Program-made: the position numbers and the translations under genes
In this document: positions 2,277-13,664 of the stretch, in pieces
Layout of the letters: each line of letters begins with the position of its first letter
How positions within the stretch are numbered: the first letter of the stretch is position 1
DNA from: an uncultured archaeon
Lineage (GTDB): Archaea; Asgardarchaeota; Heimdallarchaeia; Heimdallarchaeales; Heimdallarchaeaceae
Direction: 5' to 3'
DNA: 13,664 nt
Assembly: GCA_964534625.1 (NCBI GenBank)
Contig: CAZHRF010000061.1
Coordinates: 807 to 14,470, forward strand
Notes under the pieces: generated by a model
The model's input: only the letters and a program-made list of their open reading frames with translations
What the model was told of the DNA's origin: nothing
Database searches by the model: none

Positions 2277-2658
2277 TCGAAACTGTAGAGGATTATTTAA
2301 TAGTTCGAATGAGAAAATTGAAAGCGCAAAAATACTATTGGATGAGGAAAAAAATAGAGATTCAATTAGTAGAGCCTATTATGCAGCTTTTTTAGCAGCA
2401 AGAGCTCTTCTTTTATTTATAGGGGAAGAACCAAAAACCCATAGTGGGTTAATAACACTATTTGGACAAAAATTCGTCAAGAATAATAAAGTTGAACCAA
2501 AATATGCCAAAATCATATCTGATTTGCTAAATGCCAGGTTAAATAGTGACTACAAACTAATTACATGGTATTCTCACAAAGATGCAGAAGAATATTTGGA
2601 AAAGGCTAAAGAATTTGTTAGTAAAATGGAAGAAATCTACGATAGCTTGAAGAAATGA
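2255..2658 (+). pseudogene. HEPN-domain protein (SRAYYA/KTH type), apparently split by a 1-nt frameshift near 2299
   Basis: ATG 2255 reads MGERENLIETVEDYL, and the -1 frame continues NSSNEKIESAKILLDEEKNRDSISRAYYA...KTHSG...RLNSDY to stop 2658. The track's TTG 2338 start would remove the first helix. Confidence 0.7.
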
Positions 2659-2971
2659 TACAAAAAGAACAGATATATATCAATTCGTGGATTCCGTGAT
2701 CAAGCTAGTGAAATATAATTAGTTTCGTAATTTAGCGCATTGAGTACGTTCAAAAATATAACTAATGAGATAGAGAAATTGATTGATAGTATAATATATG
2801 TAAGAAAAGGTAGTTTACATATATGACACTTTCGATTTATACACTATAAATGAATTTCATTGTATGTTGTTACATATATCAGTATGGATCACACTTTTTT
2901 ACACTAAACTATTGTTTTAATATTTCCTGTCGTCATCTCTGCTTTATTACCATTCACAGTTTGACAGGATA

Positions 2972-3162
2972 GGGTGAACGTACTCCTTTATAAATAACGT
3001 GAAAATGACTAGAAAAGTGAATCAAAAAGGGAGAAAAAAGAAAAAATGAGTGAAGAAAAAAATAAGGTAAAAATAAGAATGGGGACGTAGGAAAACTGTA
3101 GAAGAGAGAAAGGGAAGAGATGATACGGAAATGTTGGTTGTTTCCACACTGGGAAAAACAAG
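2972..3162 (+). repeat. Left arm of long inverted repeat
   Basis: GTGAACGTACTCCTTTATAAA (2974-2994) is the exact reverse complement of 4211-4231. Collinear matching blocks continue (GTGAAAATGAC, AGAAAAGTGAATCAAAAA, GAGAGAAAG, ATGATACnGAAATGTT, ACACTGGGAAnAACAAG) to 3162. Confidence 0.92.
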
Positions 3163-3301
3163 GGATAACTAAGGAAAACACAACAAACTAGTGTAATAGA
3201 CATAGATGGACTGGATCAATAGTTTATGATAAATAGAGTTTTATTGGCACATGCATACCATTCAGTTTTACTTTTTATCTTTATGTAAATAATACTATGG
3301 T

Positions 3302-3368
3302 TGCTTAGAGTGAAATACAACAAAAATCTGTTGCGCTAGAAAAGACCGCAACAAAAAACTGTTGCATT
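3302..3368. repeat. Block 1: TGCTTAGAGTGAAAT followed by two palindromic units (GCAACA-N6-TGTTGC) at 31-bp period
   Basis: Units start at 3317 and 3348. Confidence 0.9.
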
Positions 3369-3474
3369 TATCTTAGATTGTCTTATTCAACATCATAGCG
3401 CAAATGGAAATGTTTCATTTTTTCTAATTGTAATCAAGTTCAAAATGTCATTTGCATTTTAATAATATTAGAAC

Positions 3475-3571
3475 TGCTTAGAGTGAAATGCAACAAAAAT
3501 CTGTTGCGCTAGAAAAAAACGCAACAAAAAACTGTTGCGCTAGGAAAAAACGCAATAAAAAACTGTTGCAT
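3475..3571. repeat. Block 2: same TGCTTAGAGTGAAAT head followed by three palindromic units at 31-bp period
   Basis: Units start at 3490, 3521 and 3552. The block is a direct repeat of block 1, offset by 173 bp. Confidence 0.9.
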
Positions 3572-3645
3572 CCAGAGATGAAGGCATGAGAAGGAACGAG
3601 AAGAAAGAAAAAAGGAAGAGGGGAAGGGGAGTGTTTCTTCATCAG

Positions 3646-3653
3646 TTTATATA
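3646..3653 (+). promoter_or_regulatory. TATA box for the Cas1-like ORF
   Basis: TTTATATA ends 26 nt before ATG 3679. Confidence 0.5.
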
Positions 3654-3678
3654 GCTGACTCACCTTATAGTAGGTACA

Positions 3679-3993
3679 ATGAAAGAAGTTGTATATATCA
3701 AATCATATGAAAAACCTATAGTCAGATATGGAAAGGTACTAGTTAAATCCAAAGACGGGGATAGAGAATATGAACCTGAAGAGATACACTCACTTGTTGT
3801 GGCATATCCAACCACTTCACAAGTAACAACAGACATTACAACAGTATTTGCTCTTACCAAGAGAAATATACCGATCTATTGGCTTGATGAAAAAAACAAC
3901 TATAGATTTATGGTGTGTACAATAGGACAACAAGATATAGTCAATGGGAAGATGGTGATCAAAATGATACTTCTTTTTCGAGTAAACCATTAA
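3679..3993 (+). CDS. Small protein resembling the N-terminal beta domain of Cas1; lacks the catalytic helical domain
   Basis: VYI...VLVKSKDGDREYEPEEIHSLVV...VTTD...ALTKRNIPIYWLDEKNNYRF follows the Cas1 N-terminal pattern (l.v......iP.e.I..iv.....sitt.....l....Ipi.fld..g.y). Recognised by eye only, with no HMM run. Confidence 0.6.
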   Translation: MKEVVYIKSYEKPIVRYGKVLVKSKDGDREYEPEEIHSLVVAYPTTSQVTTDITTVFALTKRNIPIYWLDEKNNYRFMVCTIGQQDIVNGKMVIKMILLFRVNH

Positions 3994-4042
3994 ATAATTA
4001 TTTAGAAAAACTCAATTCAGATCTCTAGTTTAAATTTTATAT

Positions 4043-4233
4043 CTTGTTCTTCCCAGTGTAAAAACATAGAACATTTCAGTATCATTTCTTCGCTTTCTCT
4101 CGTTTACATCTTCCCTACGCCCTCATTATTATTTTCACCTATTTTTTTCTTGCTTATTTTTCTCTCTTTTCTCCCTTTTTTGATTCACTTTTCTCGTCAT
4201 TTTCACTGTGTTTATAAAGGAGTACGTTCACTC
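4043..4233 (-). repeat. Right arm of long inverted repeat
   Basis: Reverse complement aligns collinearly with 2972-3162. Confidence 0.92.
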
Positions 4234-4247
4234 ATTTAGGGGTATAA

Positions 4248-4541
4248 ATGAAAGATATTGAAACAATAACAAAAATATTACTGGCTAATAAAAAACAACT
4301 TCAAATTGACTACAATGTTGAAGAAATTGGTGTTTTTGGTTCTTACGTTCGCGAAGAGCAATGCTATTCTAGTGATATTGATATTTTAGTCACTTTTAGT
4401 AAACCTATTGGAATGTTTAAATTTCTTGAATTAGAAGAATATCTGTCTTCTTTACTTGGATTACAAGTTGATTTGGTTTCTAAAAAAGCTTTGAAGCCTA
4501 AAATTGGTCAACACATCTTAGAAGAGGTATTAATAATTTGA
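4248..4541 (+). CDS. MNT nucleotidyltransferase antitoxin (MntA-like)
   Basis: GVFGSYVREEQCYSSDIDILV motif; VDLVSKKALKPKI; 4-nt overlap with the DUF86 gene. Confidence 0.92.
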   Translation: MKDIETITKILLANKKQLQIDYNVEEIGVFGSYVREEQCYSSDIDILVTFSKPIGMFKFLELEEYLSSLLGLQVDLVSKKALKPKIGQHILEEVLII

Positions 4542-4876
4542 AGCGTGAGCATTACGATTTCATTAAAGATATTCATGATTCTATTTTAGATATAGCTGAT
4601 TTTACAGCTAATCTAACTTATGAAGAATTTATCGGAGATAAAAAAACAGTCAATGCAGTTATTCGTAGTCTAGAAATAATAGGTGAAGCGTCAAAAAAGA
4701 TTCCTCCTACAATTAGAGAGAAAAATACGGATATACCTTGGAGATTGATGGCAAAAATGAGAGATAAGCTTATTCATCATTATCATGGGGTCGATTTAGA
4801 TATTATCTGGGTTGTTGTCACAGAAGATTTGCATCCATTAGAGGAAGCTATTAAGAAATTGCTAGCTGAACTATAA
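4538..4876 (+). CDS. HepT-like (DUF86) HEPN ribonuclease toxin
   Basis: AVIRSLEIIGEA...IPW...MRDKLIHHY contains the R-x4-H-x-Y motif. Confidence 0.92.
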   Translation: MKREHYDFIKDIHDSILDIADFTANLTYEEFIGDKKTVNAVIRSLEIIGEASKKIPPTIREKNTDIPWRLMAKMRDKLIHHYHGVDLDIIWVVVTEDLHPLEEAIKKLLAEL

Positions 4877-5195: not shown

Positions 5196-5528
5196 TTAAG
5201 TTAATATGTCCTTTATTGTTTCTTCAAGTTTAGGAACGTGGTTTATTATTACTTCCCAAAGAATTTCAAGATCTATTGAAAAATAAGCATGGATTAGAAT
5301 ATCACGTAATCCTGCAATTTTTCTCCATTCCATATTTTTTTTTTTTCTTTTTACTTCTTCAGGAATATTCTTAACAGCTTCACCAATAACTTCCAAATTT
5401 CTCATCACTGCATCTTGAATTAGAATTTCCGTTGAAAAATCCTCAAAAGATAGATTTTCAGTGTATTTTCTTATTCTTTTAATAGAATGTAAAATGTCTT
5501 CTAGATACAATTTATATTCCCTTGGCAT
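5196..5528 (-). CDS. HepT-like (DUF86) HEPN ribonuclease toxin
   Basis: DAVMRNLEVIGEAVKNIP...WRKIAGLRDILIHAYF contains the R-x4-H-x-Y motif. Confidence 0.93.
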   Translation of the reverse strand: MPREYKLYLEDILHSIKRIRKYTENLSFEDFSTEILIQDAVMRNLEVIGEAVKNIPEEVKRKKKNMEWRKIAGLRDILIHAYFSIDLEILWEVIINHVPKLEETIKDILT

Positions 5529-5823
5529 AGACTACACTACTCAAAATATTCTCTTTTAACGCTGGCTTAATATTCTCTTTAATTACTAAATCTATTGTAA
5601 GGTGAAAAAGATCTTCTAAGAATATTTTTAACCCCATGTAATTATCAAAACTCTTCTTTCCCTCTTTAAATTCTACTATGAAATCAATGTCACTGGAAGA
5701 AATTTGACCGCTTCTGACAAAAGAACCAAATACACCTAACTTTTTCACTCCGTACAACTTAATTTTATCTTTATTCTTCTGTATTATTTCCAAAATATCA
5801 GAAAGTGTTAGGGTCTGTTCCAT
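5512..5823 (-). CDS. MNT nucleotidyltransferase antitoxin (MntA-like)
   Basis: GVKKLGVFGSFVRSGQISSSDIDFIVEF; overlaps the DUF86 gene; upstream BRE/TATA-like CGAAAGTCATATAT on the minus strand (about 5846-5859). Confidence 0.92.
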   Translation of the reverse strand: MEQTLTLSDILEIIQKNKDKIKLYGVKKLGVFGSFVRSGQISSSDIDFIVEFKEGKKSFDNYMGLKIFLEDLFHLTIDLVIKENIKPALKENILSSVVYAKGI

Positions 5824-6123: not shown

Positions 6124-6222
6124 GTTTGCCACAATATCTTTCTAGGTTGGCAAGTTGATATTAAAATCAGCTTAGTTGAACTTAGGGGGTGAGTATTGTG
6201 GTCTATTTTAGGAGAGATAGAG
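6124..6222 (+). promoter_or_regulatory. Candidate attenuator RNA with alternative pairings over the hisIE ribosome-binding region
   Basis: CCACAATA 6129-6136 pairs with TATTGTGG 6194-6201. 6138-6148 pairs with 6179-6189 (with G-U). Inner hairpin at 6152-6173. Alternatively TATCTTTCT 6135-6143 pairs with GGAGAGATA 6211-6219. Confidence 0.55.
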
Positions 6223-7398
6223 ATGATTCTATATAAAAAAAGCGTAAAAAAAGATTTTGGAAATACCTTACCTATATTAGCCAAGGCTATAAAAGAAGTA
6301 ATACTAATATCACCAATAATACTTGAGTTGGGTAATCAACAACTAACAGAACTGATTAAGTCTAGATTGTTTGATAGCATTGAACAGAATCAAAGGATAT
6401 GGATTAAAAAGAAAACAGATATTACAAACACACAGATCAATCAACTGCTAACTCAAGGGTTTGGTAAGATTATTTTATCCCATGAACTGTACATTAAGAA
6501 TAAATTATCGATACCTCTATCAAGAGTTTGCATTGAGGTCAATGGAAAATACTTGGGAGAGGACAGTACTAGGATAGGATTACCTCCCACTATTCCTTTG
6601 ATCATTACAAATCCTGGTACACAATTTGAAGAAAAGTTGAGCTTAGACGAACTATATTCTTTGTTGACTAAACTGTCTAATCCACTCATAATCGATGTTA
6701 CCTCGGTAGATGTTGAAAAGAATCGATTAATTTCTTTAGTGCGTCAAGGAATAAGAATAATCAAAGATTTTGACCCTCTTATTCCAATAGTCGATTACGC
6801 GAAAGAAAACAGTGATTTTTTAGACTTTTTCAAGGGAAATGGTTTGATACCAACAATCGTGCAAGATGGGAGTAAAAACATCTTAATGCTCGCTTATTCG
6901 ACCACTGAATCTTTTTTTAAGACAGTAAAGACAAAATGTGCTACATATTTCAGTAGAAGTAGGAATAAGTTATGGGTTAAAGGAGAAACATCTGGAAATG
7001 TACAAAAAATCGTTCAGATTGCGTATGATTGTGATGGTGACACATTGCTATATACGGTTAAACAACAAGGTGTAGCATGCCATACAAATAGTTACTCTTG
7101 TTTTAATATAGAACCATTTGGTCTAGAAACCCTTTACAGCTTAATAAAACAACGACAAGAACAACCATCAGCATATGACCGTTCTCAGCCTACTTCATTT
7201 ACTGTTAAACTGCTAGAAAATATTGATTTGTTAAAATCAAAAATAATTGAAGAAGCAAAAGAAGTAGTAAATTTTACTGATCGAGAAAATCTGATCTGGG
7301 AATTAGCTGATCTCTCCTACTTTTTACTAGTTTTGATGGTGAAGAACAATATAACTTTGACAGAAGTTAAGAATGAACTCTGGAGAAGAAGAAAATGA
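6223..7398 (+). CDS. hisIE: Bifunctional PR-AMP cyclohydrolase / PR-ATP diphosphatase with a ~200-aa N-terminal extension (alternative start TTG 6196)
   Basis: YFSRSRNKLWVKGETSGN, DCDGDTL and ACHTNSYSCF (HisI); KIIEEAKEV and WELADLSYF (HisE); AGGAGA SD 7 nt before ATG 6223. Confidence 0.92.
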   Translation: MILYKKSVKKDFGNTLPILAKAIKEVILISPIILELGNQQLTELIKSRLFDSIEQNQRIWIKKKTDITNTQINQLLTQGFGKIILSHELYIKNKLSIPLSRVCIEVNGKYLGEDSTRIGLPPTIPLIITNPGTQFEEKLSLDELYSLLTKLSNPLIIDVTSVDVEKNRLISLVRQGIRIIKDFDPLIPIVDYAKENSDFLDFFKGNGLIPTIVQDGSKNILMLAYSTTESFFKTVKTKCATYFSRSRNKLWVKGETSGNVQKIVQIAYDCDGDTLLYTVKQQGVACHTNSYSCFNIEPFGLETLYSLIKQRQEQPSAYDRSQPTSFTVKLLENIDLLKSKIIEEAKEVVNFTDRENLIWELADLSYFLLVLMVKNNITLTEVKNELWRRRK

Positions 7399-8432
7399 AT
7401 CAAATAAATCGAATACTATCCTACAAACAAGGAATAAATAAGGAAGAATCAAAGCCTATACGTTTAGCTCTCCCTTCAAAAGGGCGAATGCAAGACGAAA
7501 CACAAGTTTTTTTGAAGAATTGTGGTTTTACAATTACGCGAAAAAACCGTCAATATATTGGTTATCTATCAGGTTTTGAGGATGAAATGGTACTAGTTTA
7601 TAACAGACAAAAAGATATCATTAGAGGCATTGTTCATGGTTCTATTGATATGGCTATTGTTGGATATGATCTAGTATGTGAATTTGTAAAGGATTTATCC
7701 AAGATTGTAGTCATTCACGAAGCATTGGGATTTGGAGATTGTTCTCTTGCTCTAGCTGTTCCAGAGACATGGGAAATAGATGATATTACTGATCTTCAAC
7801 AGAGAGATGGCAAACTTAGAGTTGCCACCAAATTTCCCCTCCTAACAACAAAGTTTCTTAACGAGAATAATCTTAAATATGAACTAATACAAGGGGAAGG
7901 TTCGCTTGAAGTGTATCCTGCACTAGATTATGCTGATGTTATTGTAGATCTTGTTTCTACAGGTCAGACTCTTAAAGATAATAGACTCAAGCAAATAAAT
8001 GGAGGAACAATTTTAGAATCTGAAGCTGTATTTATTGGTAAGATCCAATCTTTAAAAAAACCTGGTGTTTTACGAGTTGCCCAAGAGTTATTAGAATATT
8101 TTGAAGCTAGATTAAGAGCAGAGAGATATGTTTCGTTATATGCTAATATGAGAGGCAATTCTCCTGAAAAAATAGTCCAAAAAATGTTCAATCAAGATGG
8201 TTTGGCAGGTTTAGATGGTCCCACTATTTCTCCTATTATTAATAAATCTGGAGAAAAAATGTTTGCTGTTCATATCATTGTAGAACGACAAAACCTTCAG
8301 AATGCTATTAAAGATTTACGTAAAATAGGTGGAAGCGGAGTGGTTGTTAGTCCTGCTTTGTACATTTTCGAAGAAGAACCTGTAAGGTATAAAAAATTGA
8401 TTAAGCGAGTAGGAGTGGAAAGTGATGATTAG
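7395..8432 (+). CDS. hisG: ATP phosphoribosyltransferase, long form
   Basis: RLALPSKGRM, RVATKFP, GSLEVYPALDYADVIVDLVSTGQTLKDNRL, and a C-terminal regulatory domain with GLDGPTISP. Confidence 0.96.
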   Translation: MNQINRILSYKQGINKEESKPIRLALPSKGRMQDETQVFLKNCGFTITRKNRQYIGYLSGFEDEMVLVYNRQKDIIRGIVHGSIDMAIVGYDLVCEFVKDLSKIVVIHEALGFGDCSLALAVPETWEIDDITDLQQRDGKLRVATKFPLLTTKFLNENNLKYELIQGEGSLEVYPALDYADVIVDLVSTGQTLKDNRLKQINGGTILESEAVFIGKIQSLKKPGVLRVAQELLEYFEARLRAERYVSLYANMRGNSPEKIVQKMFNQDGLAGLDGPTISPIINKSGEKMFAVHIIVERQNLQNAIKDLRKIGGSGVVVSPALYIFEEEPVRYKKLIKRVGVESDD

Positions 8433-9825
8433 TCTCTATACCAAAAAAGAAGCTCAACAGACAATCCTTAAACGTAAAAGTATATTGGATGTGGAATTGC
8501 CAGAAAGGCTAAAAAAAGGGATAAAGGAGCTGTTTGGAAGAGATTTAACTGCTCAAGAAGTAGTACTAGAGATTATTGCTGATGTTAGAAATCAAGGAGA
8601 TCCAGCTTTAATTAAATGGACAAGACTCTTAGATAAAGTCGAGTTGTCTTCTTTAGAAATATCGCCTAAAAAGATAGAAGAATCGCTTACATTAATAAAA
8701 TCCTCTGTTCTGCAAGCTCTAAGACTAGCAAGAGATAGGATACGGGCATTCCACGAAAATCAACCTATTAAGACTTGGATGCAAAATGATATGCAGTTAG
8801 GACAGATAGTACGACCAATAGAAAAAGTTGGAATTTATGTACCAGGTGGTACTGCTCCTTTACCTTCAACAGTCCTTATGTGTTCTATTCCCGCTATTGT
8901 TGCAGGTTCGAGTAAACTAGTGATTTGTTCTCCACCGAATAAAAAAGGCAAAATGGATCCAACTATACTAGCTGCTTGTCAGCTGTTAAAGGAATTAGAT
9001 GTTGAAGTAAGAGTCTATATGCTAGGCGGAGCTCAAGCTATAGCTGCTATGGCATATGGAACAAAGCAAGTAGATGCAGTAGATAAAATAGTTGGACCTG
9101 GAAATATTTTTGTCAGCTTAGCCAAAAAAGAAGTCTATGGGCAAGTAGGAATAGATGGGATCTATGGACCGACTGAAGCTATGCTTCTTGCTGATGAAAG
9201 TGCCTCAAGTTCTCTTCTTGCTGCTGATTTGTTAGCTCAAGCAGAACATGATATGCTGTCAATACCAATTATGGTAACTACTTCAGCAAAATTGGCCAAA
9301 GCTGTCAAAGAAGAAGTTGAAAAACAGATTCAATTTCTTGAAAGAGAAGATATAGCCAAATATAGTATGGAAAATCAAGGAGGTATAGTGATAACCCCTA
9401 CAATTGAAGAAGCAGTAGAAGTTTGTAATAATTTTGCACCAGAGCACTTGTCGATAATAACAAAAGATAATTGGGCAATCATTCCAAAAATAAGGAATGC
9501 TGGCGGTATTTTTGTGGGTGAATATAGCTGTGAGGTAATTGGTGATTATATTGCGGGTCCCTCACACACCATGCCAACGAATGGTACAGCAAAATTTTCT
9601 TCAGCCTTATCCGTCTATGATTTTGTCAAATTTATAAATTTGATAGCTCTTGATAAGAAAACATCAATGGAATTGGCAAAAGGGGCTAAAATAATTGCAA
9701 AAGAAGAAAAATTAGGTGGTCACGCTAATGCAGCTAAACAAAGGATCGAGAAAAAGAAAAAACAAGATCAAACCAATAATAAACTTTCAGGAGGTTTTGG
9801 TTATGCCCAAGCAAGTATTCACTAG
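8422..9825 (+). CDS. hisD: Histidinol dehydrogenase
   Basis: VGIYVPGG, GGAQAIAAMAYGT, DKIVGPGNIFV, GPTE, QAEHD, APEHL, GDYIAGPSHTMPT. Confidence 0.97.
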   Translation: MMISLYTKKEAQQTILKRKSILDVELPERLKKGIKELFGRDLTAQEVVLEIIADVRNQGDPALIKWTRLLDKVELSSLEISPKKIEESLTLIKSSVLQALRLARDRIRAFHENQPIKTWMQNDMQLGQIVRPIEKVGIYVPGGTAPLPSTVLMCSIPAIVAGSSKLVICSPPNKKGKMDPTILAACQLLKELDVEVRVYMLGGAQAIAAMAYGTKQVDAVDKIVGPGNIFVSLAKKEVYGQVGIDGIYGPTEAMLLADESASSSLLAADLLAQAEHDMLSIPIMVTTSAKLAKAVKEEVEKQIQFLEREDIAKYSMENQGGIVITPTIEEAVEVCNNFAPEHLSIITKDNWAIIPKIRNAGGIFVGEYSCEVIGDYIAGPSHTMPTNGTAKFSSALSVYDFVKFINLIALDKKTSMELAKGAKIIAKEEKLGGHANAAKQRIEKKKKQDQTNNKLSGGFGYAQASIH

Positions 9826-10948
9826 GAAAATAAGTAAAATATCAGAATATGATGCCTTATCAACTCAATCCTTCAAACAAAACAAAAAAAACTTGGAGAT
9901 TAATGATAAAATCATCAAGATAGATGGAAATGAAAATCCCTTTCCATTACTAGATGACTGTAGACAAGCATTACAAGAGATAGATAGTCTTAGTTACTAT
10001 CCCGACCCTGAATCAGTTGAATTGGTAAAAGCATTATCAAAAAAATATGATATACCTTCTGAACAGATTATTATTACAGCTGGATCGGATGAACTAATTG
10101 ATTTATTGTTTAGATGTTTATTAGAGAAAGAAGATAGAGTAGTTTCCATTAGTCCTACCTTTGGAATTTATAAATTTCTCACTGAACTCAATAGCGGAAT
10201 ATACGATGAAGTAGAAACAGAGTTAGTCGTTAACAAGAAAACCAAAGGTGCTTCATTCAAGATTAATACAGAAGAACTGGTTGAAAAAGCCAAAAAAGCT
10301 AGAATTACCATCCTTGCTCGTCCAAATAATCCAGATGGTGGGTTGATATCTGAAGAAATAATTGAAGCACTTCTACAAATTGATACTAATCTTGTTATTG
10401 ATGAAGCGTACATAGAGTTTACAGATAACCAAAGCATGAGTAAAAAAGTATTAACGAATGAGAATCTAATAGTTCTTAGAACCTTTAGTAAAGCGTATGG
10501 TTTAGCTGGTATAAGATTGGGGTATGGAATGCTTAATTCAGAACTCAAAAAAGCATTAATGAAAATAAAACAACCGTACAATGTTAACAGTATAGCTCAG
10601 AAATTGGGAGCTGTTGTGTTGAATAAGAAAAAGGTTGAAGAAAATATCTCTAAAATAAAAACAATACGGGGGAGCTTCTACTCTGATCTGCTTGTTTTAG
10701 CCCAGTTAACTGGATCTTTTAGTGTATTTAAGAGTTCATCTAACTTTATTCTTACCCGATTTAATGATTTACAATTAAAGAAAGCTCTTTCAGCATATCT
10801 TTACAGTAATGGGATCTTAGTTCGTGAATACAACACCAATCGCCTTGAAAATTATATTCGATTCAGTATGGCAACTGAAAATGAGATGAATAAAGTTATG
10901 GAGAAACTCCGATACTTTTTTGAAAAAATGGGTGATGAAATTGAATAG
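9803..10948 (+). CDS. hisC: Histidinol-phosphate aminotransferase
   Basis: NENPF, YPDP, GSDELI, PNNP, IDEAYIEF, RTFSKAYGLAGIRLGY (PLP lysine). Start placed at ATG 9803 behind GGAGG. Confidence 0.95.
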   Translation: MPKQVFTRKISKISEYDALSTQSFKQNKKNLEINDKIIKIDGNENPFPLLDDCRQALQEIDSLSYYPDPESVELVKALSKKYDIPSEQIIITAGSDELIDLLFRCLLEKEDRVVSISPTFGIYKFLTELNSGIYDEVETELVVNKKTKGASFKINTEELVEKAKKARITILARPNNPDGGLISEEIIEALLQIDTNLVIDEAYIEFTDNQSMSKKVLTNENLIVLRTFSKAYGLAGIRLGYGMLNSELKKALMKIKQPYNVNSIAQKLGAVVLNKKKVEENISKIKTIRGSFYSDLLVLAQLTGSFSVFKSSSNFILTRFNDLQLKKALSAYLYSNGILVREYNTNRLENYIRFSMATENEMNKVMEKLRYFFEKMGDEIE

Positions 10949-11543
10949 AAAGGCAATAGTCGAACGAAAAACTGAGGAAACCTGGCTGAAAGTATATTTA
11001 GATATAGACGAAGCTGGTGAGTCTGAAATTAATACTGGAATCAAATTATTTGATCACTTTCTTGAACAGATTTCAGTTCATGGAAATTTTACTCTGCGCA
11101 TAGAAACGCTGAAAGCAGATGTAGATGTAGATACTCACCATCTGATAGAGGATACAGCTATTGTTATCGGTCAAGTTTTTACTGAAGCTATTGGTTCTAA
11201 GATTGGTATAGTAAGAACAGCTGCAAGTAAAGTACCAATGGATGAATCCCTAGCTGAAGTAATTATTGATTTCTCTGGTCGCCCTTTTTTCAAAGGACAG
11301 TTTAATTGGCAGGGGTATACAATAGGTTCTACTAATATACTCAAAACTAGTATGGTAGAACATTTTTTGTATTCATTTGCAATCAATGCTAAACTTACCC
11401 TTCATTCTAGAGTTTATTATGGTAATGATAATCATCACATGGCTGAAGCTTTATTCAAAGCTTTGGGAAGGGCTTTAGATAAAGCATCGCGGATAGATGA
11501 GAAAGGGAGTAAGACTATTCCATCATCTAAGGGAATACTATAG
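10941..11543 (+). CDS. hisB: Imidazoleglycerol-phosphate dehydratase (monofunctional)
   Basis: RKTEET, DTHHLIED, PMDESL, NHHMAEALFKA, PSSKG. TTG 10941 lies 5 nt after GGTGA; ATG 10935 is also possible. Confidence 0.95.
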   Translation: MNRKAIVERKTEETWLKVYLDIDEAGESEINTGIKLFDHFLEQISVHGNFTLRIETLKADVDVDTHHLIEDTAIVIGQVFTEAIGSKIGIVRTAASKVPMDESLAEVIIDFSGRPFFKGQFNWQGYTIGSTNILKTSMVEHFLYSFAINAKLTLHSRVYYGNDNHHMAEALFKALGRALDKASRIDEKGSKTIPSSKGIL

Positions 11544-11553
11544 GTGAATAATA

Positions 11554-12174
11554 ATGATAGTAATAATTGATTATGGAGTAGGTAACTTACGTTCAGTCCA
11601 GAAAAGCTTGCAAATTTATTATCCGGATGTGATTATATCATCTAAAGCAGAAGAGATTGAATCTGCTGTGGGATTGGTTTTACCTGGAGTCGGCTCATTT
11701 GGTGATTCTATTGAAGAATTAGAGGAATTAGGCTTATATAGTTTGTTACGCAAACAGCTGAGGTGTAAATTTTCTTTAGGTATATGTTTAGGTATGCAAT
11801 TATTGTTTGAATCTTCAGAAGAAAGTCCCGGCTATAAAGGACTTGAACTATTAAAGGGGCATAATATCAAACTTCAAGATTCTTCTGTGCGCGTACCTCA
11901 TCAAGGATGGAATAAAGTAATCCCATGGGTAACTGCAGAACCAGTATTTAGTGGGTATGCGTATTTTTCTCATACATATAGCTGCCAACCTCAAGATGAA
12001 CAAATTATAAGAGCAAGAACACTTCATGGATCATTTTTTCCAAGTATAATAGAATGGGGAACAATCTTGGCTACACAGTTTCATCCTGAAAAAAGCAAAA
12101 CATTAGGATATAAAGTGTTGAAATACTATATTTCAAAGGTGAAAAATTATGAAAGAGATAATTCCTGCAATTGA
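11554..12174 (+). CDS. hisH: Imidazole glycerol phosphate synthase glutaminase subunit
   Basis: IIDYGVGNLRSV, LPGVGSF, GICLGMQLL, QFHPEKS; AGGTGA SD. Confidence 0.96.
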   Translation: MIVIIDYGVGNLRSVQKSLQIYYPDVIISSKAEEIESAVGLVLPGVGSFGDSIEELEELGLYSLLRKQLRCKFSLGICLGMQLLFESSEESPGYKGLELLKGHNIKLQDSSVRVPHQGWNKVIPWVTAEPVFSGYAYFSHTYSCQPQDEQIIRARTLHGSFFPSIIEWGTILATQFHPEKSKTLGYKVLKYYISKVKNYERDNSCN

Positions 12175-13664
12175 CTTGATGAAAGGTAAAGTTGTTAGAC
12201 TTTACAAAGGAAAGAGAACAGAAGTAACTACATACTCTTCTGATCCAATAGAAGTAGCTGAAAACTTGTTTAAACACGGATTTCAATGGTTACATATTAT
12301 TAATCTTGATGGTGCTTTGACAGGAGATTTAGAAGAAAATGAGAACTACGCCATAATTCTTGAATTGCTCTCACTTGCTAATGAATGGGGAGTAAAAGTA
12401 CAATTGGGTGGGGGACTGAGAAGCTATGAAGATATTAGTTTTCTCTTATCAGCTGGAACTGAACGCGTAATACTTGGTACTTTGGCCTTTGAAAATGAAG
12501 TAATATTGAAACGTTTAGTGGAAGAGTTTGCAGATAGAATTGTGGTAGCTTTAGATGTTTCCGAAAATGATTCTTTGTGCATAGAGGGGTGGAAAACAAA
12601 GATATCTGAAAATATAATAGATGCGCTTCATCGTTTTGAGTGTCTTGGTGTAAAAACTTTTCTTGTTACTGATACACAGCGGGATGGCACTATTCAAGGA
12701 TCTAATCTAAAATTATATTCTCTTCTTCAAAAGTATAAAAATGAAGATACGCATATAATTTCAGCTGGAGGAATAGGCTCTAAAAAGGATATTGAAGAGG
12801 TATTATCGATTGTTGATTCCGTAGTTGTTGGAAAAGCTCTCTATGAAAATAAACTGACTCTTGATGAACTTGAACAACTGATACTTCACTATGTATCAAC
12901 TTACTTGACGAAAAGAATAATTCCTTGTTTGGACGTTAAGAAAGGATTAGTGGTTAAAGGCGTTAATTTCAAAGATCTAAAAATTAGTGGTCATCCTGTT
13001 GAACTTGCACATAAATATGATGCATCTGGAGCTGATGAATTGGTATTTTTAGATATTTCAGCGACAATAGAAGGAAGAAAAAGTATGTTAAAAGTAATTA
13101 GTGAGGTAGCAGAAGAAGTAGGACTACCTTTTACTGTAGGTGGAGGTATAAAGAGCCTAGAAGATATGACTTCTATAATACAAGCTGGTGCTGAAAAAGT
13201 ATGCATTAATACTGCAGCATATTTGAATCCTTTATTAATTTCCGCGGGAGCAAAACAGTTTGGCTCACAGAGTATAGTTGTCGCAATTGATGCAAAGAAA
13301 AATAGTACTCAAAACTTTTGGGAAGTGGTTATTCGAGCTGGTAATGAACCCACAGGTAAAGACGTAATTGAATTTGCCAAAGAAGTAGTAGAACTTGGAG
13401 CAGGAGAATTGCTTGTAACATCTATAGATCATGATGGAACAAAAGAAGGGTATAATGAAGAGTTATTGATTGAGTTGGTAAAAAGTGTGAATGTTCCTAT
13501 AATAATTTCGGGTGGGGCAGGAAAGAAAGAACACTTTTTAAAGGCTATCAATAATGGTGCTGACGCTACCTTGGCAGCTTCACTTTTTCATCTTGATAAG
13601 TTACAAATTGAGGAATTAAAAAACTATCTTTTGTCTAAAGGAGTTAAAATGAGGATTGAAACAG
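12149..13664 (+). CDS. hisA-hisF: In-frame fusion of HisA (ProFAR isomerase, about 12149-12880) and HisF (IGP synthase cyclase, from 12905); 3' end runs off the window
   Basis: MKEIIPAIDLMKGKVVRLYKG...GGGLRS...RDGT...SAGGI...VGKALYE, then with no stop LEQLILHYVSTY-LTKRIIPCLDVKKGLVVKGVNF...GADELVFLDISA...SIDHDGTKEGY...SGGAG...LAASLFH; AGGTGA SD. Confidence 0.93.
   Translation, partial: MKEIIPAIDLMKGKVVRLYKGKRTEVTTYSSDPIEVAENLFKHGFQWLHIINLDGALTGDLEENENYAIILELLSLANEWGVKVQLGGGLRSYEDISFLLSAGTERVILGTLAFENEVILKRLVEEFADRIVVALDVSENDSLCIEGWKTKISENIIDALHRFECLGVKTFLVTDTQRDGTIQGSNLKLYSLLQKYKNEDTHIISAGGIGSKKDIEEVLSIVDSVVVGKALYENKLTLDELEQLILHYVSTYLTKRIIPCLDVKKGLVVKGVNFKDLKISGHPVELAHKYDASGADELVFLDISATIEGRKSMLKVISEVAEEVGLPFTVGGGIKSLEDMTSIIQAGAEKVCINTAAYLNPLLISAGAKQFGSQSIVVAIDAKKNSTQNFWEVVIRAGNEPTGKDVIEFAKEVVELGAGELLVTSIDHDGTKEGYNEELLIELVKSVNVPIIISGGAGKKEHFLKAINNGADATLAASLFHLDKLQIEELKNYLLSKGVKMRIET

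Follow-up and report, generated by a model that had tools for sequence, protein, structure and literature searches.

The stretch of DNA analyzed here (the window, 13,664 nt, positions 807-14470 of contig C61) belongs to a genome of 3.37 Mb in 120 contigs with a G+C content of 32%. Positions 6196-13663 of the window are a histidine-synthesis gene cluster, which encodes a HisIE protein with a 230-aa N-terminal extension. In 30 other genomes of the family, this HisIE was not matched at E <= 1e-20; there is thus no orthologous locus for a synteny comparison, and the histidine cluster may be a lineage-specific gain. The window also contains toxin-antitoxin pairs. Pfam identified NTP_transf_2 or Polbeta in all three MNT genes of the window, HepT-like toxins in the pairs at 4248-4876 and 5196-5823, and HEPN (PF05168) in the gene at 2338-2658. 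Between 2660 and 4250 nothing gene-like was found besides a Cas1 fragment, all other ORFs being short and of low complexity. The features on which this report is based are listed here in window coordinates.

1938-2658 and 5196-5823: further nucleotidyltransferase/HEPN-family pairs (Pfam)
2974-3168, plus strand: left copy of a module, GTGAAC...TTTATAAA, whose homology to other copies continues to approximately 3256
3288-3297, plus strand: AATAATACTA box of cassette 1, TATA-like, matching 3461-3470; putative promoter element
3302-3316, plus strand: head 1, TGCTTAGAGTGAAAT, identical to head 2
3317-3365, plus strand: block 1, with dyad 3317-3334 (one mismatch), linker 3335-3347 and dyad 3348-3365
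3366-3460, no strand: spacer between the blocks, 95 bp, 25% G+C, unrelated to the sequence 3' of block 2
3461-3470, plus strand: AATAATATTA box, TATA-like, which opens cassette 2
3475-3489, plus strand: head 2, TGCTTAGAGTGAAAT
3490-3569, plus strand: block 2, with dyads 3490-3507, 3521-3538 and 3552-3569 (the last with one mismatch) and linkers 3508-3520 and 3539-3551
3646-3653, plus strand: TATA box TTTATATA of the cas1 remnant, read from the sequence, 33 bp before the ATG at 3679
3679-3993, plus strand: ORF of 104 aa, Cas1 N-terminal domain only (PADLOC Cas1 models)
4037-4231, minus strand: right copy of the module, inverted, with its outer end 17 bp before the MNT start at 4248
4248-4876, plus strand: MNT/HepT toxin-antitoxin pair (Pfam) flanking the segment

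We confirm that the dyad array is real. The pattern GCAACA-N6-TGTTGC, searched with at most one mismatch, was matched 5 times in the window, compared to 0.02 matches expected from 200 shuffles, none of which gave 5. The palindromes are 18 bases long and start at 3317 and 3348 in block 1 and at 3490, 3521, and 3552 in block 2. A preliminary description of this DNA had reported five such dyads at 31-bp spacing in two blocks. All five are present at that spacing, but only three of them (3348, 3490, and 3521) are perfect; one mismatch each is found at 3317 (ACAACA) and 3552 (GCAATA). The 31-bp phase is exact within each block, and TRF delineated 3486-3569 as a repeat of period 31 with 2.7 copies and 92% matches. 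The statement that both blocks open with the same head was also correct, and the two heads are the sole exact copies of TGCTTAGAGTGAAAT in the entire genome. The same holds for the constancy of the linkers, which had been taken to speak against spacers: the 13-bp linkers GCTAGAAAAGACC, GCTAGAAAAAAAC, and GCTAGGAAAAAAC are 0-2 positions off GCTAGAAAAAAAC.

The core of each unit is an 18-20-bp palindrome with an A-rich center, and its arms are actually 7 bp long (CGCAACA/TGTTGCG). As a consequence of the 7-bp arms, adjacent units also make a second dyad across the center of the linker with a spacer of 11 bp, and the array thus amounts to ten half-sites whose orientation alternates, at distances of 13 and 18 bp. 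The distance from block to block is 173 bp, corresponding to 5x31+18 bp or 16.5 turns at 10.5 bp per turn, which places block 1 and block 2 out of register. The loop is AAAATC in unit 1 of both blocks and AAAAAC in the later units. Because the unit-1 loop is common to both blocks, the two-dyad, 31-bp layout is older than the block duplication; judging from these loops, block 2 would have gained one unit later, or block 1 would have lost one. A hand count of the differences among units gave 2 of 60 positions in the arms, 2 of 30 in the loops, and 3 of 39 in the linkers. Arms, loops, and linkers thus vary about equally, so that recent duplication fits as well as selection. Copy number was viewed in four DNA runs of one study, probably of the source sample, which returned a single 1098-bp unitig (3106-4203) without variants; these data are contigs, which lose rare variants, and they do not count as independent evidence.

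The similarity between the two blocks includes a TATA-like box. A 78-bp cassette composed of this box, the head, and two dyads is identical between the blocks at 70 of 78 positions (61 of 64 for the head plus two units). Inter-block similarity begins at the AATAATAYTA box, 14 bp 5' of the head, and stops with the second dyad; the 100 bp on either side are at shuffle level (15 vs 17.5 ± 2.9 upstream and 13 vs 13.8 ± 2.2 downstream). Each block stands behind its own TATA-like box, located about 25 bp upstream of its first hairpin. Such similarity amid unrelated flanks may be taken as the sole internal hint of constraint, or of copying as a whole unit. A cassette kept or copied in its entirety, including the TATA-like box, would fit a promoter-operator cassette better than simple slippage.

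Downstream, the array ends approximately 75 bp before the TATA box at 3646-3653, in agreement with the preliminary description, which had also called the adjoining ORF Cas1-like. This assignment is upheld for the N-terminal domain only: eight PADLOC Cas1 models match the ORF at 3679-3993 (best E 2.2e-7), placing residues 4-94 on profile positions 3-86 of 285. Weaker matches in the same register were obtained with TIGR00287 (E 0.0013) and Pfam Cas_Cas1 (E 0.015), and the nearest Atlas clusters are Cas1 fragments (0.89). A continuation of Cas1 was sought in the other frames after the ORF and not found, and the catalytic domain is absent locally. With phmmer, the 104-aa sequence matched itself alone among 1.84 billion representative proteins; a comparison with solved structures returned nothing meaningful, and its AlphaFold model has a mean pLDDT of 42, too low to be of use. 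The only full cas1 of the genome is located in a type I-B-like operon on contig C85. Nothing in these results ties the array mechanistically to Cas1.

The preliminary description placed the array inside an element, and it does sit between 195-nt inverted-repeat arms at 2974-3168 and 4037-4231, which are 78% complementary in an ungapped comparison and 84% by BLAST. These arms are copies of a dispersed module specific to this genome, in which an outer end, GTGAACGTACTCCTTTATAAA, is combined with a core of about 57 nt that is conserved and with a tail rich in purines. At least 10 copies share this sharply defined outer end, and a palindromic TATA box is part of it. It occurs with up to 4 mismatches at approximately 16 genomic places, and 10 copies align over 55-250 nt. 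In addition to the copies of the window (2974-3256 and 4037-4231), the module is found at C6:70036, C32:34888, C49:17111, C38:26013, C8:36343, C41:21684, C20:45256, and C15:59779, besides weaker copies, and most of these are solo. The copy on C32 is 100% identical to the left copy of the window over 102 nt, the C6 copy matches the window to 3214, and a C8 copy matches 3140-3256. At three copies the ATG of a gene lies 12-17 bp outside the module end (33-38 bp from the TATA box), and at three others a co-directional gene follows on the inner side; the copy on C49 is beside an MNT/HepT pair. The module may be a mobile promoter-bearing repeat tied to toxin-antitoxin cassettes. No conserved RNA fold was found in its first 100 nt, no autonomous partner was found for it, and the interior of the segment has no similarity to it. 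Searches of 30 other genomes of the family returned only low-complexity purine-run matches, and its end had 0 matches in viral contigs. A second segment ending in an inverted module copy is located at C8:34960-36343, with a degenerate left copy that matches window positions 3140-3256. This segment carries three small co-directional genes, the middle one of which encodes a HicA toxin (E 2e-16).

With a Cas1 homologue between long terminal inverted repeats, here the 195-nt arms, the segment resembles casposons (self-synthesizing Cas1-PolB transposons), for which TIRs and target-site duplications are the defining features (PMC9939771). Unlike in casposons, Cas1 is represented by its N-terminal domain only, and the apparent TIR belongs to a dispersed module, of which there are no fewer than 10 further copies, mostly solo. 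We rejected the casposon as a candidate, given that a full-length Cas1 casposase is absent and that there is no target-site duplication, the longest direct word common to the 25-nt flanks being 4 nt. The largest ORF between the repeats encodes 104 aa, and PolB is therefore not encoded there. The array and the cas1 remnant look like cargo of a cassette-type island, not like a casposon.

A scan of the genome, which the preliminary description had proposed as a check, located the perfect dyad and the head at this locus only; genome completeness is 89.8%, which bounds all statements on the genome-wide uniqueness of dyad and head. The looser pattern CAACA-N6-TGTTG is present at 5 further sites in the genome, compared to an estimated 3 or so by chance, and 4 of the 5 are inside ORFs. 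Outside this genome, a homologous locus was not encountered. The DNA at 3240-4000 was without a real match among 60 relatives, and a search for two dyads that allowed up to 3 mismatches was positive in 0 of 82 other genomes of the class; the single dyad and the head occurred among relatives at the level of a reversed-pattern control. The two matches in the genome contig collection are both unrelated G+C-rich bacterial palindromes. Among viral contigs, the dyad pattern had one match, in an unrelated phage promoter region, and there were 0 matches each for the linker junction and for the head plus first arm. Metagenome contigs gave at least 119 stretches; among the matches listed, 79 loci were inspected, and the A-rich loop, the CTAG linker, and the head were absent from all of them. 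Literature searches on casposons, Cas1 homologs, and Cas1-solo in Asgard or other archaea did not reveal a description of such an array. Within the genome itself there are 136 tandem arrays of period 20-45, and palindromic units with arms of at least 6 bp are found in 4 of the 136. A 36-bp tandem duplication (2.1 copies, 100% identical) at C30:937-1012 spans the last codons of a 78-aa gene, which by the look of its sequence may encode a winged-helix regulator, together with a hairpin/T7 terminator-like element.

Comparison with CRISPR repeats was made possible by the genome of the closest relative (G004, Cas1 59% identical), in which an array adjoining cas1 gives a 29-nt repeat. Using this repeat, we found the host CRISPR repeat, also 29 nt, at the contig starts C103:2-30 and C98:3-31. 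It is non-palindromic, differs by 4 substitutions from the repeat of G004, and is present in single copies only, the arrays being unassembled; contig C85, beyond cas2, and contig C103, beyond a cas6-like gene, terminate in leader-like sequence that is 85% similar between them. The 31-bp unit scored 5 against the host repeat, where the mean of the background is 7.0, and a score as high is reached by 99.8% of random genomic windows. Against four repeats of G004, G005, and G007 the score was also 5, under the background means. The head resembles the 3' end of the host repeat (TAG.GTGAAA) marginally, with P of approximately 0.06-0.07 per block, uncorrected. The preliminary description had considered a spacerless repeat produced by Cas1-type duplication. 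This suggestion is not sustained: the unit is unlike the repeats of the host and its relatives and the local Cas1 lacks its catalytic part, which argues against Cas1-type duplication as well as against mimicry of the host repeat. The array shares with CRISPR arrays and solitary repeat units the palindromic direct repeats of about 30 bp beside a cas1-like gene and an A+T-rich upstream region. It differs from them in that there are no spacers, only 2+3 units, and a Cas1 fragment. We rejected the CRISPR array as a candidate, since the units abut at a 31-bp period without unique spacers, repeat families are unmatched, and functional cas1-cas2 genes are not adjacent, with just Cas1 profile positions 3-86 of 285 present.

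We tentatively favor, with less than even confidence, a reading in which a promoter cassette was duplicated and the array constitutes its operator-type sites, possibly as a relic. Each cassette would comprise a TATA-like AATAATAYTA box, a 15-bp head, and then two or three units of 31 bp, the palindromes being putative docking sites for a dimeric (or higher-order) DNA-binding protein. As the sites are about three helical turns apart within a block, bound dimers would lie on one face of the helix, possibly cooperatively. The docking sites would fall in the cas1 control region, at the presumed start of rightward transcription, which is the typical position of archaeal repressors. Given that cas1 is cut to its N-terminal domain and that the segment has no gene for a binder, we regard the array as the probable leftover of a control region. 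It would derive from a foreign unit with cas1 that became trapped between two inverted repeat copies of the toxin-antitoxin island, and would probably not be a working switch.

An operator-, iteron-, or centromere-like array, as proposed in the preliminary description, is the best fit to the architecture, in which putative palindromic sites recur every 31 bp in each block and the array stops 75 bp upstream of a TATA box. Against operator-type sites speak the lack of a binder gene in cis (no candidate DNA-binding gene was found in the segment), the blocks being out of register, and the truncation of the regulated gene. Moreover, there is no second site in the genome and hence no regulon and no autoregulated promoter. 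The constancy of the 31-bp period counts for little as evidence, because any tandem repeat has a constant period and we estimate that roughly 3 in 10 periods chosen arbitrarily would deviate from whole turns by no more than 1 bp. Lrp-site boxes are 13-15 bp long (in part from PMC2715240). Archaeal Lrp-type regulators bind clustered, regular palindromes on one DNA face with centers two or three turns apart (PMC2995911). The array is similar to such operators of Lrp/AsnC (feast/famine) regulators, for example the three Ss-LrpB control-region boxes, in its clustered imperfect palindromes with A/T-rich centers next to a promoter and in its regular two- or three-turn center spacing on one face (PMC2995911). 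Unlike in Lrp operators, the dyad is 18-20 bp long with an even 6-bp center, no Lrp-type gene is adjacent, and there is one locus only. Dedicated regulators are able to bind cas1-solo promoters (PMC7465815). Look-alikes from other sources include two such dyads beside a sigma-70-like promoter on a viral contig and three TGCAACAAATAACTGTTGCA dyads of 29-bp period directly upstream of a gene start on a bacterial metagenome contig. The latter (LAHS01000212.1, 2500-2580) has TGCAACAA(A/C)(T/C)AACTGTTGCATA dyads before a gene of 299 aa, the family of which is not known. Phased palindromic repeats near a promoter are a known kind, of which the array here is a further example.

It is somewhat unlikely, yet has to be weighed seriously, that the array is a neutral and fairly young tandem duplication in a decaying, repeat-rich island, in which a hairpin-bearing 31-bp stretch was multiplied by slippage and is functionless today. 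The 136 tandem arrays in the genome, the second duplicated hairpin with a T-run at a gene end on C30, the approximately 92% similarity of the units without excess conservation of the arms, the unique and unconserved locus beside a gene fragment, and the single form seen in the four DNA runs (one study, probably the source) are all consistent with such an origin. However, slippage yields adjacent copies and not a second 78-bp cassette 173 bp away across unrelated sequence, palindromic units are rare among the tandem arrays (4 of 136), and the unit-1 loop common to both blocks makes the layout older than the last duplications. We consider it unlikely that the array acts instead as a stack of terminators on the minus strand, which would stop leftward transcripts, for example from the inward promoter-like end of the right module copy. 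On that strand each unit comprises a stem of 7 bp, a loop of 6 nt, and then a T6-T7 run, and thus resembles a G+C-containing intrinsic or tandem terminator; T-runs by themselves stop archaeal RNA polymerase. Five terminator-like sites were found in 2600-4400, compared to 0.4 expected, all of them within the array (4 minus and 1 plus). Within the blocks, the minus strand has seven T-runs of at least 5 and the plus strand has none; the sole plus-strand T-run of this length is a T6 at 3418 in the spacer 3366-3460. The terminator-like element on C30, a hairpin with T7 at the 3' end of a gene, is likewise tandemly duplicated, and the module end on C8 is followed inward by a co-directional operon including HicA, which makes inward transcription from the module plausible. 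By contrast, unlike intrinsic terminators the array does not follow a co-directional gene: the minus strand has no gene with its 3' end here, and to the right of the array lies the cas1 remnant, encoded on the plus strand. In addition, actual gene ends in the window carry T-runs that lack hairpins, and the conserved head and TATA-like box would be left unexplained by terminators.

Readings that invoke a small RNA are very unlikely. Each block would then encode a promoter-driven RNA beginning at the head and folding into two or three hairpins, which could be a CRISPR-repeat-like decoy, a crRNA-like regulator (a solitary repeat unit or RNA anti-CRISPR), or a fossil of Cas1 duplication. This would accommodate the distance of about 25 bp from each TATA-like box to the first hairpin, the 31-bp length and the palindrome of the unit, which are in keeping with CRISPR repeats, the proximity of a Cas1-like gene, and a C to T change at 3556 that retains a G-U pair in the plus-strand RNA (a single case). 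The region is also more stably folded than shuffled sequence (z = -3.7), as any palindrome array would be, and mobile elements are known to have repeat-mimicking RNAs (PMC10651486). On the other hand, the host repeat is non-palindromic, the unit is unlike the repeats of the host and four of relatives, neither block is closely followed by a T-run on the plus strand, spacers are missing, and the local Cas1 has no catalytic domain. A search of 2600-4400 against Rfam 15 reached at best 23.8 bits compared to a gathering score of 43. It is highly doubtful that the array represents iterons or a centromere from an integrated plasmid or virus, or core sites at which a site-specific recombinase acts. 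Two direct-repeat blocks around a promoter are known from parC of plasmid R1, and the array is comparable to such plasmid iteron and centromere arrays in having two blocks of phased short repeats near a promoter. The two blocks flank a 95-bp stretch of 25% G+C within a mobile, cassette-like island, and the arm-6-arm geometry (7-bp arms and an asymmetric 6-bp spacer, all of one polarity) presumably resembles that of recombinase core sites. Unlike in plasmid arrays, however, the repeats are palindromic and no partition or replication gene is nearby. Neither in nor beside the segment is there a gene for a replication initiator, a partition ATPase, or a recombinase, and Pfam identified only nucleotidyltransferase, HEPN/HepT-like toxin-antitoxin, and histidine-synthesis genes among neighboring ORFs. 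Furthermore, the blocks are direct and not inverted, and a spacer of 25% G+C is hardly more A+T-rich than the genome at 32% G+C. Least probable among the readings considered is that the cassettes and the gene for the Cas1 N-terminal domain form one working cargo unit between the inverted module copies, providing either promoter-driven, spacer-less hairpin RNAs as decoys or crRNA-like regulators, or a fossil proto-array. The RNAs would in that case serve a CRISPR system other than the type I-B-like system of the host, and the fossil would be a spacer-less proto-array from an ancestral full-length Cas1.

The array is tidy and real, while its function is uncertain and possibly lost. Because it is single-copy, unconserved, and located beside a gene fragment, its value is mostly descriptive, as a clean example of short palindromic units multiplying in this genome. 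To our knowledge, the transcription factors of Asgard archaea and the sites that they bind are almost unexplored. If the dyads are real binding sites, as operator-type sites would be, they would provide a compact and easily tested promoter-operator cassette from an uncultured Asgard archaeon, and a hint of dedicated control of a stand-alone Cas1 homologue. The context is maybe more widely useful than the array itself, namely the TATA-bearing module by toxin-antitoxin cassettes and a host CRISPR repeat that can be recovered from contig ends. Concerning the module, aragorn, which identified 28 tRNAs in the genome, placed none within 3 kb of any module copy in the assembly. Window position 3066 is a loose end in three source metagenome runs, in which one copy of the module is followed by tRNA-like sequence after about 93 nt. 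From C32:34988 onward, the module copy breaks into another repeat, CGCTGGTGAC...CCTATCCCAAAGTAAGCT, which is also present as 71-bp tandem pairs at C11:1-110 and C26:15940-16080.
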